Positions 5,498 through 10,582 are shown, counted from the first letter of the stretch. The stretch is 54,725 nt of DNA from Streptosporangiaceae bacterium (GCA_030045175.1 JASIBM010000468.1:1-54725), one strand, 5' to 3'. A program made the numbers and translations. Notes: generated by a model from the sequence alone, not told the origin.

Positions 5498-6604
5498 GTG
5501 ATCAGGTGGCGCCGCGGCGTGGTGGCCGCTGTCAGGCGGGAGTGGGCAGGCGCGGTCGAGCTCGACGTGACAGTACCCCCTGGGACAGCGGCGGTGCGCG
5601 CGCTCGCTTACCCGCGGCTGACCGGCCGCCCCGAGCCTGGCGACGAGGTGCTGCTCAACGCCGGGGCGCTTGAGCTTGGCCTGGGTACCGGCGGCTACGC
5701 GCTCGTGATCGCCATTCCTGACCGCCTGCCGCCCGACCAGCCCGGCCCCGGCCACCTGGTGAAAGCCAGGTACACGCCGATGCAGGCGATCGTGGCTGGA
5801 GCGGACGAGCAAGGCTCCGCGCACCACGACACCCTGCGTGACGCCGACGACATCGAAGGCATCGGCGTCGTGATCGCCGACCTGCACTCGGCGCTGCCCG
5901 CGGTGCTCGCTGGCTTTCATGCACAACGGCCAGGGCCGGCCAGTCCCGGCGGGCGAGCTGGATCATCCCGCGTCGCCTATCTCATGCTCGACGGCGGGGC
6001 GCTCCCTGCCTGGTTCTCGCGCACGGCGGCGACGCTGCGCGAGATCGGCTGGCTCGCCGGGATCGTCACGGTCGGGCAGGCGTTCGGCGGCGACGTCGAG
6101 GCGGTCACCGTGCACAGCGGCCTGCTCGCGGCCAGGCACGTCCTGGGCGCCGAGCTCGTCGTCGTCGCGCAGGGCCCGGGCAACCTGGGCACGGGGACGC
6201 GCTGGGGCTTCTCTGGCGTCGCCGCCGGCGAGGCGGTCAACGCGGTGGCCGTGCTCGGCGGCCGCCCGGTCGCCTCGCTTCGGGTCAGCGACGCGGACCC
6301 GCGCGAGCGGCATCGCGGCATCTCGCACCACAGCCTGACCGCGTACGGCCGGGTCGCGCTGGCAAGGGCCGACGTCGTCGTGCCCGACCTGCCAGGCGAG
6401 CTCGGGGCGCGGGTGCGCGCGGAGGCCGAGCCGCTGCGCAAGCGGCATGACCTCGTCCTGGTCAGCGTGGCCGGCTTGCGCGAGGTGCTCGCGGACTGCC
6501 CGGTGCCGCTGTCGACGATGGGCCGCGGCCTGGATCAGGACCTGGCGTATTTCCTCGCGGCGGCCGCGGCCGGCCGCCACGCGGCGACGCTGGGGCCGGC
6601 CTGA
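5498..6604 (+). CDS. DUF3866-like conserved actinobacterial protein
   Basis: The ORF reads VIRWRRGVVAAVRREWAGAVELDV...ARYTPMQ. The GTG start at 5498 is chosen on family-like N-terminus and length (~368 aa). Start is uncertain. Confidence 0.6.
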   Translation: MIRWRRGVVAAVRREWAGAVELDVTVPPGTAAVRALAYPRLTGRPEPGDEVLLNAGALELGLGTGGYALVIAIPDRLPPDQPGPGHLVKARYTPMQAIVAGADEQGSAHHDTLRDADDIEGIGVVIADLHSALPAVLAGFHAQRPGPASPGGRAGSSRVAYLMLDGGALPAWFSRTAATLREIGWLAGIVTVGQAFGGDVEAVTVHSGLLAARHVLGAELVVVAQGPGNLGTGTRWGFSGVAAGEAVNAVAVLGGRPVASLRVSDADPRERHRGISHHSLTAYGRVALARADVVVPDLPGELGARVRAEAEPLRKRHDLVLVSVAGLREVLADCPVPLSTMGRGLDQDLAYFLAAAAAGRHAATLGPA

Positions 6605-6619
6605 AAGCTGAGCCAGGCC

Positions 6620-6640
6620 CGCCGGCCTTCGCGGCCGGCG
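6620..6640. terminator. GC-rich hairpin (cgccggcc-ttcgc-ggccggcg) between convergent genes
   Basis: 8-bp perfect stem and 5-nt loop, located between the DUF3866 stop (6604) and the PNP-like gene stop (6661). There is no U-tract, as is common in actinobacteria. Confidence 0.4.
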
Positions 6641-6660
6641 CCACGATCCCTAGCCGCGCA

Positions 6661-7674
6661 TCAGGGAGCCGGGTCCGGCCATGGGAATAGCGGATTGGCT
6701 ACCAGCGTCAGGAAGAGGTCTAGAGCGTTATGCATGGCATACCGGCGCCATGAGCCCGCGGCGCCACTGCAGCCGGTGGCGTCGTCCAGCTCGCCCTTCC
6801 GCTCATCCGAGAAATCAGAGATGCCGCGGATGACCATTAGATGGGCCCGGTTGTCATGATATATAGCTCGCGCGGCTCCGCCTGCTTCCATCTCAATGGC
6901 CGCCCGAAACCGGTTAGTCTGACGAAGCCACCGACTAAATGATGCGGCTGCGCTGACTATATCACCAGTTGCGACAGGGCCGACCAGATAGTCCGGGTAA
7001 TCGCCAGCCAGCGCAGGGACGCCGGCCGCGAGCACAGGATCCCTGTTGTGCTTCGTGCGCTCGCGCCACGAGCTGAAGCCTCCGCCCGCATCATGAAGGT
7101 AGCGGAAGTTATTGATATAGCTGACGATCTCCGGCTTCGCCTGCCAGGATACGCCACCGAGGTCGAATTCAACCCCATCTCCTGACTCAGCCGGCGTGGC
7201 CCGGGCCCCGTACAGGTACTCCTCGATGGAGGATGCTATGACCACGTCGCCCAAGCGCAACTTAGGGCTTAGTGCTCCTGCGATACCTACCAGGGCAAGT
7301 GCCCTGACATCGTAGCGCGCGAGCACGCTGGTCGCCGCCACTGCTGATGACGCTTGCCCCATCTCAAAGAGAACGACGGCAACTCCGCTGAGCGAGCTAG
7401 CACCGACCGCGAATGGATAGTGGTAGTACCCGCCGCCGTCGCTGCGGGGATCGCCAAAGCGAAGAATGTCGCGTGCGTAGTCGAACTCATCACGAGTCGG
7501 GATGATCAGGCATACGTCGACGGGGTTGCCCGTGCGGGCCGCACGGCCAGCAGCTGCCCCCAGATCCTGCGCGTTCCTGCGAGCCCCGAGGTCTGTGCCG
7601 TTCTTGACGATGCCGGTGTTGCCGTCACCGACCTGAATTACCTGATCGCCGACCTGACGATACTCAGTAGGCAT
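6661..7674 (-). CDS. PNP_UDP_1 / MTA-SAH-nucleosidase-fold protein with an N-terminal RHIM/BASS-like peptide (337 aa)
   Basis: Hallmark phosphorylase/nucleosidase-fold motifs are present: LALVGIAGAL, AIEMEAGGAARAI and MVIRGISDFSDE. The N-terminus is MPTEYRQVGDQVIQVGDGNTGIV. Start chosen at CAT 7672-7674, overlapping the upstream gene stop by 11 nt. The track start at 7722 is the alternative. Confidence 0.75.
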   Translation of the reverse strand: MPTEYRQVGDQVIQVGDGNTGIVKNGTDLGARRNAQDLGAAAGRAARTGNPVDVCLIIPTRDEFDYARDILRFGDPRSDGGGYYHYPFAVGASSLSGVAVVLFEMGQASSAVAATSVLARYDVRALALVGIAGALSPKLRLGDVVIASSIEEYLYGARATPAESGDGVEFDLGGVSWQAKPEIVSYINNFRYLHDAGGGFSSWRERTKHNRDPVLAAGVPALAGDYPDYLVGPVATGDIVSAAASFSRWLRQTNRFRAAIEMEAGGAARAIYHDNRAHLMVIRGISDFSDERKGELDDATGCSGAAGSWRRYAMHNALDLFLTLVANPLFPWPDPAP

Positions 7675-8176
7675 GGGATACGCCAGTGTTATTGTTGCCG
7701 TATTGCGACACGATGTCCCCATAATTGGTTATCCAGTTATGGTAGGCGACTTTAGCATCGCCGATCGCGTCCATGATCGTTCGTATCAGTTCCTCGATAA
7801 CGCTCCGGTCAGGGCTTGCCAGCAGAGTCTGCGGATCGCCTGAGGTCTGGATCATCAGGAGGTGATACGCTATTTTCCTGCGCTCCTTCTGGATGGCTCG
7901 GATAAGCTTAATCGTGCTCACCGCGGAGCAGGCCAGAACTCCGAGTATTGCATACGTGCCCGCGTTATGCACATGGAGTATCGCCATTATGATAGCCGCC
8001 AGGATACCGAGGCCTATCCACTTCGCCAGTGCCTTGAGATAGTCCTTCACCGGCGTGCCACGTCTCGGGTATACTGTCCTTACTTGCGCCCTGGCGATGT
8101 TTCGGAGCGGATACGCGTCCCGGCCAATCCACAGAACCCCCTTGGCGACCTGGACCTCCGTATTAATTCCTGCCAT
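7664..8176 (-). CDS. Small two-TM membrane protein (170 aa) with a beta-rich PH-like N-terminus and a C-terminal RHIM/BASS-like peptide, possibly DUF6232-like
   Basis: Two hydrophobic segments, WIGLGILAAIIMAILHV and YAILGVLACSAVSTIKLI, are flanked by basic residues (N-in/C-in). An SD-like GGGGGAAAGAG lies upstream of the ATG. The C-terminus is NYGDIVSQYGNNNTGVSHAY. G+C is far below the neighbours. The family name is a memory-based guess. Confidence 0.65.
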   Translation of the reverse strand: MAGINTEVQVAKGVLWIGRDAYPLRNIARAQVRTVYPRRGTPVKDYLKALAKWIGLGILAAIIMAILHVHNAGTYAILGVLACSAVSTIKLIRAIQKERRKIAYHLLMIQTSGDPQTLLASPDRSVIEELIRTIMDAIGDAKVAYHNWITNYGDIVSQYGNNNTGVSHAY

Positions 8177-8351
8177 TTCGCTCTTTCCCCCTATATGATC
8201 ACGATGCGTGGCCTCGCTTGCTCATACGGTTATTAAGGCAGGCGAGCATGTATTACCACATGTTGATTGCATCGCGGTCATCTACCAGCGCTCTACCATT
8301 TCTCTTCCGATGACGCGAAGAGCCCGGAACGACGTGCGGGCCGCAGCGCTG

Positions 8352-9311
8352 TCAGCCGGTAGCGGCCAGGATGTCGATGACGAACACCAGCGTGTCGGTG
8401 CCCTTGATGCCGACCGACGGCTGCCCGGCCTTGCCATAGCCATCGGCCGGGGGCACCACGAGCATTACCCTGCTGCCCACCGGGACCCCGACGAGGCCGG
8501 TCTTCCACGCCGTGATGACGTTGTCCAGCGGGAACGAGGTCGGCGGCGCACCCGGCTGAGCCTTCGTCGGCCAGTCGTTGTTGAACTCCTTGCCCGTTCG
8601 CCAGATTGAGCCGATGTACCTCGTGACGAGCGTTTGCCCTGCCTTCACCGCCGGGCCGGTGCCCTTGATCAGCGTGGTCACCACCAGGCTGGTCGGCGGG
8701 GCCTTCTTGGGGAACGTCAGGCTCGGCGCCTGGCCCGGTGTCGCCTTGACCGTGGGCAGCGCGCCTCCGCCGTTGCTGACCTGCTTGCCCGACGCGCTCG
8801 TCGTCGGCGTGAACGCCTCGGTCGGGTCGATGACCCAGACCATCGTGTCCGTGGGCTTCACGCCGAGTTGCGGCTGGCCCTGCTTCCCGTAGCCGTACTT
8901 GGGCGGCACGACAGCGAGCTCGCGGCTGCCGATCCGCGCACCGGTCATGGCTCGCTGCAGGCCAGTAAGCCCGAGATTGACCGGAAGAAGCTGCGGGCCC
9001 GTCGCGTAGGTGGAATAGATCAGCTTGTGGGTGGAGCCGCGCCAGACGAAGACGTCGAAGTTCGCGAGGTAGGAATCCAACGCGGTCAGGGCGGCGCCGT
9101 GCCCCGCCGTCACGGTCTTGGTGACCAGCGAGCCGCTCGCCGGCTCGGCGGGGATCTTGACGGTGGGCGCCTTGCCCACGGCGCCGGCGACTGTGACCGA
9201 CTTGTTGGGGTTGGCAGGCGTGGCGGACGAGCACCCCGCCAGCGCGATGCCGACGGCTAGCACGGTGCCGACGGCGGGCGGGGTGAGGAGCGCAGCGGTC
9301 AGGCGTCGCAT
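8352..9311 (-). CDS. FKBP-type peptidyl-prolyl isomerase lipoprotein (two FKBP domains)
   Basis: The signal peptide has a lipobox (IALAGCSS). Two repeated FKBP-like segments are present (VTRYIGSIWRTGKEFNNDW... and DVFVWRGSTHKLIYSTY...). Confidence 0.8.
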   Translation of the reverse strand: MRRLTAALLTPPAVGTVLAVGIALAGCSSATPANPNKSVTVAGAVGKAPTVKIPAEPASGSLVTKTVTAGHGAALTALDSYLANFDVFVWRGSTHKLIYSTYATGPQLLPVNLGLTGLQRAMTGARIGSRELAVVPPKYGYGKQGQPQLGVKPTDTMVWVIDPTEAFTPTTSASGKQVSNGGGALPTVKATPGQAPSLTFPKKAPPTSLVVTTLIKGTGPAVKAGQTLVTRYIGSIWRTGKEFNNDWPTKAQPGAPPTSFPLDNVITAWKTGLVGVPVGSRVMLVVPPADGYGKAGQPSVGIKGTDTLVFVIDILAATG

Positions 9312-9544
9312 GAGATTTCCCTGATTCGGCGTGAGACTTCGGTTTCGTGGCGCGGCTAGCTTAGCGGACCGGCCTTGGCTGGCTGGCCCGGACCGGGGGT
9401 CTCAGATCCGGTAACCAGGCGTTGTGCGCAATTTTCCATGTTTAACTGTTTTCCAGGAATTAATCAGATATTTTACCTTCGATCAGGCCCCGCGACAGGC
9501 GCTCAGCGCCCAGTAGCCCGGCGTGTACCGGCGTTAGGCAGGTC

Positions 9545-10582
9545 TTGAGGCTAGTCACCGCGCATCGCACGACAGGCAAGTCCAGGAGGGCAGCACGCCA
9601 CGCGGCGCCAGGGCAGGCCCCGGCCCGGGTCAGGCGAGCGGGCCTGGTGGCCACCGTGGCCATGCTCGCGGGCGGCCTGGTCGCCGTCGTCGCGGCCTTC
9701 GCGGGCGGCATGGTCGCGACGCCGCTGCCCGGCCAGTCAGCCAGCCCGGTGGCCACCGACGCCATCAGCAGCGTCAGCCGCGCGGGCCTGGCTAGCCCTG
9801 GCTACCCGGACAAGATCAGCGGTAGTACCGTCGCGGCCCGCTCGCGGCCGGCGAAGCCGGCCAGCAAGGCCAGGACACGGCGGCCCGAGCGCCCGGCAGC
9901 CCGTCCCGCCGCCCGGTCGGGCGGGCACCATGTCGCGCGTCATGTCGCGCGCACCTGGTGGGAAGAGCGCCAGGTCGCGCGCCACACCACACGGACCTGG
10001 TGGGAAGAGCGCCAGGTCGCGCGTCATGTCGCACGGGCCTGGTGGGAGGACCACCTGATCGCGCGTCATGTCGCCGGAGCCTGGCCGGGTAAGCGCCCGG
10101 TCACCCGCCGCGCCGCCGTCGCCAAGCGCGCCAGCTCCAGTCCAGGCAAGAGCACCACGGCCAGCACGCTGCATTGCTCCGGGTCGAGCGCGATGCTCCC
10201 GGAGAACTACGTGACCATCGTGAGCTTCCTGATCAAGCACGGGTACACCAGGCTCGCGGCCGCCGGGATCGCGGGGAACATCTGGCAGGAATCCCAGGGC
10301 AACCCCGAGGCGGTGGGCTCCGGCGGCGGCGGCCTGATCGGGTTCACGCCGCTGCCCGCTGGCTACGTCACGGGCAACCCGGCAGTGGACCTGCAGACGC
10401 AACTCGATGCCATCTTGACCTACAACGAGCAGTGGGCGCAGTACATCCCGGCGCTGAACGCCGCGACCAGCGCGACGCAGGCCGCGGATATCTACATGAA
10501 CGACTTCGAGCGCCCCGGCATCCCGGCCGCGGCCAACCGGGAGGCGGCAGCGGTCGCTGTCGCCGGCGCCTGCGGGTTCTAG
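9545..10582 (+). CDS. Secreted or membrane-anchored cell-wall hydrolase-like protein (C-terminal phage-tail-lysozyme/transglycosylase-like domain)
   Basis: Basic N-region plus a hydrophobic anchor (LVATVAMLAGGLVAVVAAFAGG). The C-terminal domain contains AAAGIAGNIWQESQGNPEAVGSGGGGLIGFTP...AADIYMNDFERPG. The 9545 start is TTG and is uncertain. Confidence 0.65.
   Translation: MRLVTAHRTTGKSRRAARHAAPGQAPARVRRAGLVATVAMLAGGLVAVVAAFAGGMVATPLPGQSASPVATDAISSVSRAGLASPGYPDKISGSTVAARSRPAKPASKARTRRPERPAARPAARSGGHHVARHVARTWWEERQVARHTTRTWWEERQVARHVARAWWEDHLIARHVAGAWPGKRPVTRRAAVAKRASSSPGKSTTASTLHCSGSSAMLPENYVTIVSFLIKHGYTRLAAAGIAGNIWQESQGNPEAVGSGGGGLIGFTPLPAGYVTGNPAVDLQTQLDAILTYNEQWAQYIPALNAATSATQAADIYMNDFERPGIPAAANREAAAVAVAGACGF
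9953..10078 (+). repeat. 3 x 42-nt in-frame tandem repeat encoding (T/A)WWEE(R/D)xxARHxxx
   Basis: Units are 9953-9994, 9995-10036 and 10037-10078, with partial copies on both flanks (9929-9952 and 10079-10090). Confidence 0.9.

Follow-up and report, generated by a model that had tools for sequence, protein, structure and literature searches.

A common terminal peptide links a DUF6232 membrane protein to a PNP-fold nucleosidase in a mobile actinomycete cassette: a candidate amyloid-signalling-type module

The window analysed here, a 54,725-nt contig of a Streptosporangiaceae bacterium (GCA_030045175.1, JASIBM010000468.1), contains a low-GC islet of ~1.7 kb inserted between genes for a DUF3866 protein and an FKBP protein. 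The islet holds two coupled minus-strand genes, one encoding a DUF6232 membrane protein of 170 aa (gene 1) and the other a 337-aa protein with a nucleosidase domain of the PNP_UDP_1/MTAN fold (gene 2; PNP, purine nucleoside phosphorylase; MTAN, methylthioadenosine/S-adenosylhomocysteine nucleosidase). We find that the C-terminal tail of gene 1 and the N-terminal head of gene 2 carry the same short G/N/Q-rich peptide, and that the islet is a self-contained, horizontally mobile two-gene cassette. By analogy with described systems, the pair may represent an amyloid-signalling-type conflict module devoid of a NOD-like receptor (NLR), in which the common peptide would serve as signalling link and the nucleosidase as effector; we put the probability of this reading at roughly 0.5. 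A first-pass annotation of this DNA had already nominated the pair as a candidate conflict module. As a candidate, the pairing of a membrane protein with a nucleosidase effector stands, while the trigger, nucleotide depletion and abortive infection it proposed stay inference; the terminal peptide linking the two proteins had been missed.

Amyloid templating is an established switch from immune receptors to cell-death effectors in fungi and animals. To our knowledge it has been shown experimentally in just one bacterial antiphage system so far, and all described bacterial cases that we know of combine an effector with a large cytosolic sensor, either an NLR or the TPR-PIN protein Agp.

A peptide common to the two proteins

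The C-terminal ~20 residues of gene 1 (...NWITNYGDIVSQYGNNNTGVSHAY) and the N-terminal ~25 residues of gene 2 (MPTEYRQVGDQVIQVGDGNTGIVKNG...) follow the common pattern GD-x-[VI]-x-Q-x-G-x-x-N-T-G, and constitute the best local match anywhere between the two proteins. The Smith-Waterman score of tail versus head is 42, compared to 18.8 ± 3.9 in composition-preserving shuffles (0/5000 as high). A hidden Markov model (HMM) was built from 61 DUF6232 tails taken only from other subclades, and searched against the 100,160-residue six-frame translation of the window. Only two matches stood out, the tail of gene 1 at E = 0.0019 and, at E = 0.0021, the head of gene 2; the third-best match reached just E = 9.8. 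Every close orthologue of gene 1 or gene 2 keeps the peptide in register: the gene 1 tail shows invariant N151, G153, D154, Q158, Y159, G160, N163 and G165, and the gene 2 head is retained across P0002-P0006. As the corresponding DNA segments do not overlap (Table 1), the similarity does not reflect one stretch read in two frames. A neutral recent duplication was also considered as the source of the peptide; this was rejected, given that the peptide is conserved and co-varies within pairs across clusters <50% identical.

Gene 1 matches the Pfam DUF6232 model (PF19744) with E = 6e-16 and 59.4 bits (gathering cutoff 27.4). The model spans only residues 8-138, and the tail peptide therefore lies outside it. 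In the AlphaFold model of gene 1, with a predicted local distance difference test score (pLDDT) of 70.6, four N-terminal strands within residues 4-35 precede two long helices (residues 42-66 and 72-99) that form a transmembrane (TM) hairpin with basic flanks, followed by two strands, a helix (124-139), a strand (145-151) and a disordered tail (154-170). The first-pass description of gene 1 is hence supported with respect to the N-terminal strands and the two-TM hairpin; its PH-like label is unverified, a Foldseek search of the model against the PDB returning no significant match (best E 0.03, TM-score 0.25). Searches of NCBIfam and PADLOC with gene 1 gave no match, those of PHROGs a weak one only (phrog_23009, E = 2e-4, function unknown), and no similarity to Bell-like or other effector families was detected using Pfam, PADLOC or Foldseek. 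According to AlphaFold, the peptides of both proteins are located in flexible, low-confidence termini, and residues 4-8, 11-15 and 21-23 of gene 2 are predicted to form short strands.

The longest open reading frame (ORF) called mechanically for gene 2 starts at 7722 and encodes 353 aa, which is the form listed in the public protein collection (P0001). We place the start at the ATG at 7674 because the N-termini of the orthologues (MPSEY..., MSSEY..., MSTEY...) support it. The 353-aa call positions the head peptide 16 residues inside the protein, where motif screens based on the N-terminus would miss it. The gene lengths and 11-nt overlap of the first-pass annotation are confirmed from the sequence, and the overlap in orthologous pairs is 8 nt (L001) or 4 nt (L010).

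The DUF6232 family and its partner slot

An exhaustive profile search identified 322 DUF6232 relatives (155 at E <= 1e-10), nearly all of which are 160-190 aa in length, with most containing a tail of the gene 1 kind beyond the end of the Pfam model. Tail subtypes comprise GDxIxQxGxxNxGK, IGQVGDNFxVFGxxNxGK, MRDFYNASGxGxVGR, YGDxxGGDKFEVxGxGIGKIVH, GDxIQQYGSGSIGKAEHSGSG and the RHIM-like DxRGAQGVQVGDGNKQ, and tails with repeated units (GDKxxGDKxx) occur as well. The mean peptide length is 21.6 residues, with enrichment of N (4.9x), G (2.7x), Q (1.5x) and I (1.4x) and depletion of L (0.06x) and P (0.16x). This agrees with most of the published bias of the bacterial amyloid-signalling motifs (BASS), V and K deviating. 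L013-type tails with a G-phi-Q-phi-G core match the Pfam RHIM model at 16.4 and 17.6 bits, under its 20-bit cutoff. Neither DUF6232 nor DUF5955, a domain resembling the usual partner described below, is mentioned in the literature searched.

To place the tails in genomic context, one genome per species was scanned with a profile derived from a 26-sequence alignment (A5). This yielded 80 loci, distributed over Streptomyces, Kitasatospora, Amycolatopsis, Nocardia, Dactylosporangium, Lentzea, Nonomuraea and Streptosporangiaceae. A second copy of the tail was located in the adjacent gene at ~77/80 loci (scores 57-133), mostly at the N-terminus of a neighbour encoded on the same strand, the genes overlapping by 4 nt (ATGA). 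The two copies co-vary: own partners rank first in 18 of 32 dereplicated pairs, and own-pair scores sum to 2354 compared with 1317 ± 75 on random re-pairing (0/20,000 as high). No third conserved gene was detected around the DUF6232 loci beyond one genus-level synteny group.

Variant arrangements were also observed, the partner being located upstream either on the minus strand (L013, L049, L062) or on the same strand as the DUF6232 gene (L020, L021, L028). The second tail copy of these loci is part of a ~40-60-aa ORF (counted from the nearest start codon) that is upstream of or divergent from DUF6232, with gene models that are uncertain, and their peptides belong to the RHIM-like subtype (G-V-Q-V-G / DARGANIGNIGDH).

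Co-variation within pairs is equally expected of any specific protein-protein interface. It is thus conceivable that no amyloid is formed, and that the peptides provide a stoichiometric β-augmentation tether keeping the partner inactive or localised, with activation by release, proteolysis or conformational change, in the manner of toxin-antitoxin or anchor-effector pairs. Translational coupling, which suggests a fixed stoichiometry, would suit such a tether, as would the fact that peptides of the PNP pairs are identical at only about 8/15 positions. However, the peptides match like with like and are not complementary, and their composition (G/N/Q-rich, no L/P), ~21-aa length and location in flexible termini are the signature of a templating motif and not that of the usual heterodimer interface. 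Both RHIM-like subtypes and repeated-unit tails exist in the family, and equivalent mirrored peptides connect other members of this PNP clade to oligomerising STAND (signal transduction ATPases with numerous domains) NTPases, as described below. We consider a simple tether unlikely, and favour amyloid-type templating.

The usual DUF6232 partner is 105-125 aa in length and consists of the head peptide and a conserved helical domain weakly similar to DUF5955. PNP partners are found in the subclade of gene 1 (>=54% identity), which comprises the window, L001-L004/L011, L010, L093 and L098, as well as L094 where the partner is cut at the contig end; DUF6232 genes <=44% identical to gene 1 retain the small partner. 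The PNP head MSTEYHFGDEIVQYGPGNIGMIKYQG is nearly identical to the small-partner head MSTNYHIGDSVTQYGDGNIGMIKSQ, and the head has thus been kept while the catalytic domain took the place of the small domain. L050 (Lentzea sp. HUAS TT2, ~5504-6094) adds a third type of effector, its 197-aa partner consisting of the head peptide and a TIR_2 domain (27.4 bits versus a cutoff of 28). In PADLOC, no match was obtained for the small or TIR partners or for the proteins paired with sister PNPs, except for weak PDC-M14B similarity of the L040 partner. Homologues of gene 1 and gene 2 are found together elsewhere in unrelated neighbourhoods. Co-occurrence was one of three computational checks that the first-pass annotation had set for its own proposal, along with presence in close relatives and MtnN/DeoD orthology of gene 2 (both below), and none of them refutes it. 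Nor is the pair a singular case, as it forms a branch of a large family of DUF6232 gene pairs in which the usual partner is no nucleosidase.

Domain fusions indicate that DUF6232, the β-peptide and DUF5955 are modular units. P0083 combines PNP, a G/N/Q-rich segment and DUF5955 in a single chain, whereas FHA-DUF6232 fusions (P0122, P0146) suggest a phospho-threonine input. In P0177 and P0189, DUF6232 is accompanied by a ~200-aa unannotated C-terminal domain.

The nucleosidase, its sisters and the proposed mechanism

Gene 2 matches the Pfam PNP_UDP_1 model (PF01048) with E = 1.3e-14 and, in PADLOC, both PDC-M60C (E = 2.6e-14, over 189-379 of the 407 profile positions) and the CBASS PN-superfamily effector (E = 2.9e-9). 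The AlphaFold model (pLDDT 88, predicted TM-score 0.85) is confident over residues 50-330, and has MTAN as best Foldseek match (TM-score about 0.76), futalosine hydrolase being matched as well, with 14-19% identity to solved structures. The VGIAGAL, EMEAGG and IRGISD motifs on which the nucleosidase assignment was originally based are present, with EMEA and R-x-ISD aligning to MTAN active-site segments. The catalytic residues, including E263 and D287, occupy invariant or nearly invariant columns in a 68-sequence alignment (A3).

Given that the closest sequence and structure matches are MTAN and futalosine hydrolase, and that the catalytic residues are conserved, gene 2 could be seen as a routine salvage enzyme of the MtnN, futalosine hydrolase or DeoD type, accompanied by an accessory membrane protein. 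However, it scores under every NCBIfam housekeeping equivalog cutoff (MtnN, DeoD, Udp, XapA), the best being MtnN with 62 versus 169 bits, which places it outside the MtnN/DeoD orthologue groups in line with its initial interpretation. The low identity to solved MTANs, the absence of the pair from close relatives and its foreign composition (see below) likewise argue against a salvage enzyme. The 88 homologues of gene 2 are rare and mostly metagenomic, and many carry fused TPR, TIR_2, EAD1, Fic or HEAT domains, with homologues also adjoining STAND NTPases. The salvage reading is highly improbable, and a housekeeping role for gene 2 can be considered effectively excluded.

Immune PNP domains from bacteria, fungi and sponges cleave ATP/dATP (Rousset et al., bioRxiv 10.1101/2023.01.24.525353), and by analogy gene 2 probably cleaves (d)ATP. 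It resembles CBASS Cap17 and Detocs DtcC in being a non-housekeeping PNP_UDP_1 domain with conserved catalytic Asp/Glu that serves as a modular effector. Unlike these systems, the cassette does not contain a CD-NTase/SAVED, histidine kinase, receiver or STAND domain, and activation is proposed to occur via the common peptide. Pfam and the structural model reveal no NTPase, repeat or receiver domain in gene 2 itself. The features of Detocs, i.e. the DtcA sensor histidine kinase, DtcB and the receiver on the PNP protein, are missing from the two-gene insert. Component C of PDC-M60, a system for which literature mention is limited to one survey, is the best PADLOC match to the PNP domain of gene 2, but this likeness is at the domain level only: the A and B components are absent, and no PADLOC match was obtained for gene 1, the genes around the pair or the partners of related PNPs. 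As a system, the window pair is not Detocs, CBASS or PDC-M60.

Sister PNPs, with cores 61-69% identical to that of gene 2, lack the N-terminal head and contain C-terminal tails instead. For P0016 (L009), the tail ...NSQVNQAARDLHVY has its mirror, ...GAKVMQAGRDIYDI, at the N-terminus of an AAA_16-TPR STAND protein encoded next to it, which is the canonical effector/NLR peptide-pair layout. Similarly, the tails of P0007 and P0013 (TTFIGETHVGDLRIGG; TSFTGTTEIRGDLRIGG) have counterparts (ASFIGETHIGSVIIST; ASFVGNTYVQSVTISS) close to the N-terminus of a P-loop protein of ~720 aa encoded downstream. The nucleosidase is therefore repeatedly the peptide-controlled component in this clade.

The 896-aa STAND protein of L009 (4051-8680) is convergent with P0016, the start of which is overlapped by a gene for a 323-aa predicted membrane protein. 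Besides the tailed PNP, the four-gene operon of L005 (8001-12748) and L006-L008 (8001-12784) encodes the ~720-aa P-loop protein, which has the Walker A motif GPxGCGKE, and two further proteins of ~350 and 166 aa, with BTAD-NB-ARC and NUDIX-NrtR genes nearby. The three non-PNP partners have no Pfam or PADLOC match, and the operon looks like a separate, undescribed PNP-effector system.

Fungal PNP_UDP effectors are placed under NLR control through the amyloid motif PUASM (Wojciechowski et al., PMC9815663). As observed in the window, a PNP_UDP-fold enzyme is joined to its partner by a short G/Q/N-rich peptide, with FxGxGxQxxGxGxF in PUASM compared to [FY]GDx[VI]xQxGxxNxG in the window. In the fungal case the motif follows the PNP and a NACHT NLR is the partner, whereas the window motif is N-terminal and its partner a membrane protein. 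The fungal-type layout with a C-terminal motif is present in the sister bacterial PNPs of L009 and L005-L008.

Bell/NLR pairs with BASS1-10 have been described by Dyrka et al. (bioRxiv 10.1101/2020.01.06.895854), PNP not being among the effector domains listed. The window pair resembles both these and HET-S/NWD2 in having adjacent, collinear and overlapping genes whose products share a G/N/Q-rich, P/L-poor peptide of ~20-25 aa, C-terminal in the first and N-terminal in the second. Within-pair matching, the many motif subtypes and the restriction to filamentous actinomycetes are further likenesses to BASS, and one DUF6232 subtype has the RHIM/BASS3 core G-phi-Q-phi-G. In contrast to BASS, there is no NB-ARC/NACHT/STAND receptor in the window pair, the C-terminal motif is on a two-TM DUF6232 protein rather than Bell/HeLo, the N-terminal motif is on an enzyme or small helical protein rather than a receptor, and amyloid is only proposed here. 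The Bab/Agp pair of E. coli (BASS11), an antiphage abortive infection (Abi) pair shown by experiment, combines Agp, a 1094-aa TPR-GreA/B-C-PIN sensor, with Bab, a pore-forming Bell-like effector (Ibarlosa et al., bioRxiv 10.1101/2024.11.07.622273). It also comprises two genes with a common terminal peptide, and shows the receptor need not be an NLR; it differs in that gene 1 and gene 2 are unrelated to Bab/Agp, and in that the enzyme is on the N-terminal-motif side here. A STAND/NLR or large sensor as N-terminal-motif partner was encountered only in the sisters L009 and L005-L008. Because the window pair has no such sensor, it lacks one defining feature of the described amyloid-signalling families.

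On the basis of these comparisons, we propose a model for the cassette. Gene 1 would be located in the inner membrane with both termini cytoplasmic, its flexible tail carrying a ~15-20-residue G/N/Q-rich, β-prone peptide. A membrane-level or phospho-signalling event (cf. the FHA fusions) might cluster or unmask the DUF6232 tails, allowing these to take up a stacked cross-β (β-arch) fold as in HET-S/NWD2, Bell/NLR and Bab/Agp. The stacked tails would then recruit and template gene 2 heads, leading to an oligomerised and switched-on nucleosidase. Once active, the enzyme would split an abundant adenine nucleotide at its N-glycosidic bond, the likeliest substrate being ATP/dATP by comparison with Cap17 and DtcC, and cause cell arrest with an abortive-infection-like or regulated-cell-death outcome. 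DUF6232 would replace the STAND/NLR NTPase of the sister systems, with the partner gene acting as a swappable effector slot (DUF5955-like, TIR, PNP). Extending this model to the family, DUF6232 proteins could be membrane nucleators of an NLR-independent prion-like pathway, widespread in mycelial actinomycetes, whereby a perturbation felt at the membrane would turn the C-terminal peptide into a cross-β template that activates a neighbouring effector (DUF5955-like, TIR or (d)ATP-cleaving PNP); we regard this broader proposal as plausible but tentative.

In described amyloid-signalling pairs, it is the cell-death effector that bears the motif C-terminally and the receptor that bears it N-terminally. 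The polarity of the window pair is the reverse, as the enzyme holds the N-terminal motif of a receptor and the membrane protein the C-terminal motif of an effector; DUF6232 could therefore be the executioner. The coupling may thus be real but operate in the opposite direction, with DUF6232 a holin- or Bell-like two-TM protein that is nucleated by its partner and harms the membrane, or both proteins might be effectors responding to an unlinked trigger. DUF6232 does occupy the C-terminal-motif position, which is the place of the cell-death effector in all described pairs, and is small with two TM helices and basic flanks. Furthermore, PNP/MTAN enzymes are obligate oligomers, and an oligomeric PNP could gather N-terminal heads as an NLR oligomer does. 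In contrast, the partner slot is occupied by classic effector domains (PNP, TIR_2) or a tiny helical protein, none of which is sensor-like, PNPs of this very clade serve in the sister systems as effectors controlled by STAND NTPases, and the FHA input domains are fused to DUF6232 and not to the partner. These observations make the reversed direction improbable in our view, and we retain the model in which DUF6232 acts upstream of the nucleosidase.

In addition to the reversed polarity, a number of observations weigh against the amyloid-signalling model. No Pfam amyloid model, RHIM included, matches the window peptide subtype. Matching is looser in the PNP pairs, with scores of 40-46 and own partners ranking 13-19 among 32, than in typical family pairs, which score 60-109. 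The extracytoplasmic part of DUF6232 is only ~6 residues and no ligand-binding domain is recognised, while the TIR_2-DUF6232 fusion P0191, which is without the TM hairpin, indicates that DUF6232 can also be joined in cis to an effector. By HMM score alone, the placement of gene 2 in the defensive (Cap17) PNP clade is ambiguous, as the MtnN model (62 bits) scores above the CBASS PN effector model (34 bits). Finally, PADLOC has no model for gene 1 or the small partners, and DUF6232 relatives were not found on viral contigs.

The locus points to a large unstudied family of at least 322 sequence clusters, present in dozens of Streptomyces, Kitasatospora, Amycolatopsis and Nocardia genomes, that displays the genomic signature of amyloid signalling but is built from a membrane protein of 170 aa and an exchangeable effector. 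If correct, the model would extend amyloid signalling to membrane-initiated immunity, and the cassette would be the first amyloid-signalling immune or cell-death module with a small membrane protein upstream, as opposed to a STAND/NLR or large cytosolic sensor. It would also contain the first bacterial amyloid-controlled PNP effector, mirroring the fungal PUASM systems. The high interest of the cassette lies in its being an unusually small model that is testable at the peptide level: it would provide a minimal two-protein model for enzyme activation by templating, with ~20-aa peptides that can be synthesised and mutated. Since the same head is found on three different effectors, the mechanism would be directly testable by natural head swaps.

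The inserted cassette and its surroundings

Alignment of the DUF3866-FKBP gap with L091 and L092 reveals that homology stops near the left edge of the insert and picks up again near its right edge (Table 1), the native terminator hairpin being kept to the left. The insert contains two genes only and is the lowest-GC 1.7-kb stretch of the window, at 0.592-0.594 versus 0.690 ± 0.028 for 1.7-kb windows. The G+C content at third codon positions (GC3) is 0.67-0.68 in gene 1 and gene 2, compared to 0.89-0.94 in the genes for PafC, PafB, DUF3866, FKBP, the lysozyme-domain protein and the extracytoplasmic function (ECF) sigma factor. The sharp drop in composition reported at first pass is corroborated by these values, and the hand counts given for it (27/60 at 7681-7740, 50/60 at 6541-6600) are exact. 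The distance from DUF3866 to FKBP is only 59-77 nt in three relatives (DUF3866 identity 87%, 81% and 79%), one of which is a Streptosporangiaceae metagenome-assembled genome (MAG). In the closest relative (91% DUF3866 identity; contig of P0258, JGI 3300047160) the pair is likewise missing, and the gap carries a 146-aa ORF without Pfam match and a 298-aa alpha/beta-hydrolase. The presence of different cargo in this relative identifies the gap as a recurrent insertion spot. In another Streptosporangiaceae MAG the pair is flanked by tRNA_edit and MFS genes, again with foreign composition (GC3 0.69 versus 0.90-0.95). The presence/absence polymorphism anticipated for the islet is hence observed. 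No convincing direct or inverted repeats were found at the insert boundaries, no integrase accompanies the insert and no tRNA is present in the whole window.

DUF6232 pairs are below their flanks in GC at 62/64 loci. Such foreign composition combined with a patchy, insertion-like distribution is typical of defence cargo; PNP and TIR are recurrent Abi effectors, and Bab/Agp demonstrates antiphage amyloid signalling. The mechanism may nonetheless apply as proposed in a role other than antiphage defence, such as regulated cell death, kin discrimination or filamentous-actinomycete development. This would fit with confinement of the family to mycelial actinomycetes (Streptomyces, Kitasatospora, Amycolatopsis, Nocardia, Dactylosporangium, Streptosporangiaceae), a distribution similar to that of BASS pairs, which are restricted to multicellular bacteria, and with the lack of both family members on viral contigs and a PADLOC model for DUF6232. 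We view a role of this kind as possible, albeit on the unlikely side, and prefer the conflict module.

Table 1 Features of the cassette and its left edge in the window.
Feature	Position	Strand	Basis or remark
Cassette, low GC, ~1.7 kb, inserted	6646..8330 (approximate edges)	.	gap alignment with L091 and L092; GC
GC-rich hairpin after DUF3866; native intergenic remnant at left edge of insert	6618..6642	.	aligns with L091 gap; inverted repeats I8, I12
Gene 2, head peptide + linker + PNP_UDP_1/MTAN-fold nucleosidase, 337 aa	6661..7674	minus	Pfam PF01048; AlphaFold
Catalytic PNP core, residues 53-337	6664..7518	minus	conserved E63, E261-M262-E263, R283-G284-x-S286-D287
Linker, variable, low confidence, residues 25-52	7519..7602	minus	pLDDT 48-63; poor conservation in alignment A2
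Gene 2 head peptide VGDQVIQVGDGNTGI, residues 8-22	7609..7653	minus	mirrors gene 1 tail; tail HMM
Overlap of gene 1 stop and gene 2 start, ATGCCTACTGA, 11 nt	7664..7674	minus	translational coupling
Gene 1, DUF6232, 170 aa	7664..8176	minus	Pfam PF19744
Gene 1 tail peptide YGDIVSQYGNNNTGV, residues 152-166	7679..7723	minus	orthologue conservation; pLDDT <50; tail HMM
Shine-Dalgarno-like GGGGGAAAGAG	8181..8191	minus	read directly; 4 nt upstream of ATG at 8176
Conserved block upstream of gene 1 (CGGAAG-N17-GGTAGAT...TGC.AT), ~50 nt	8261..8309	minus	shared by leaders of window, L001, L010

The Shine-Dalgarno sequence previously indicated upstream of gene 1 was located (Table 1). Further upstream, the conserved ~50-nt block is kept in three independent cassette copies although their flanks are unrelated. 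Its spacing is similar to that of a -35/-10 promoter, and the block probably holds the promoter of the cassette. A consensus promoter/terminator scan, including a simple sigma-70 pattern, revealed nothing above chance and did not pick up the block. An Rfam scan of 6400-8700 at E <= 1 gave no match, and hence no known riboswitch or leader RNA.

A functional tie to the Pup-proteasome neighbourhood was considered and rejected, as the cassette is found in unrelated contexts elsewhere and the gap is empty in relatives; the location beside the Pup-proteasome genes is coincidental. Three plus-strand ORFs inside the islet (7354-7755, 7862-8236 and 8208-8609) were dismissed as antisense shadows without support.

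Beyond the cassette, a second and smaller GC dip (0.60) at 9300-9599 lies in the intergenic region from which the FKBP and lysozyme-domain genes diverge, and is probably a promoter region. The Phage_lysozyme2-domain gene itself (9545-10582) contains a 42-nt tandem repeat at 9928-10084 (3.7 copies, 81% matches), which encodes a 14-aa unit (...ARHVARTWWEERQV...) in the N-terminal half of the protein.

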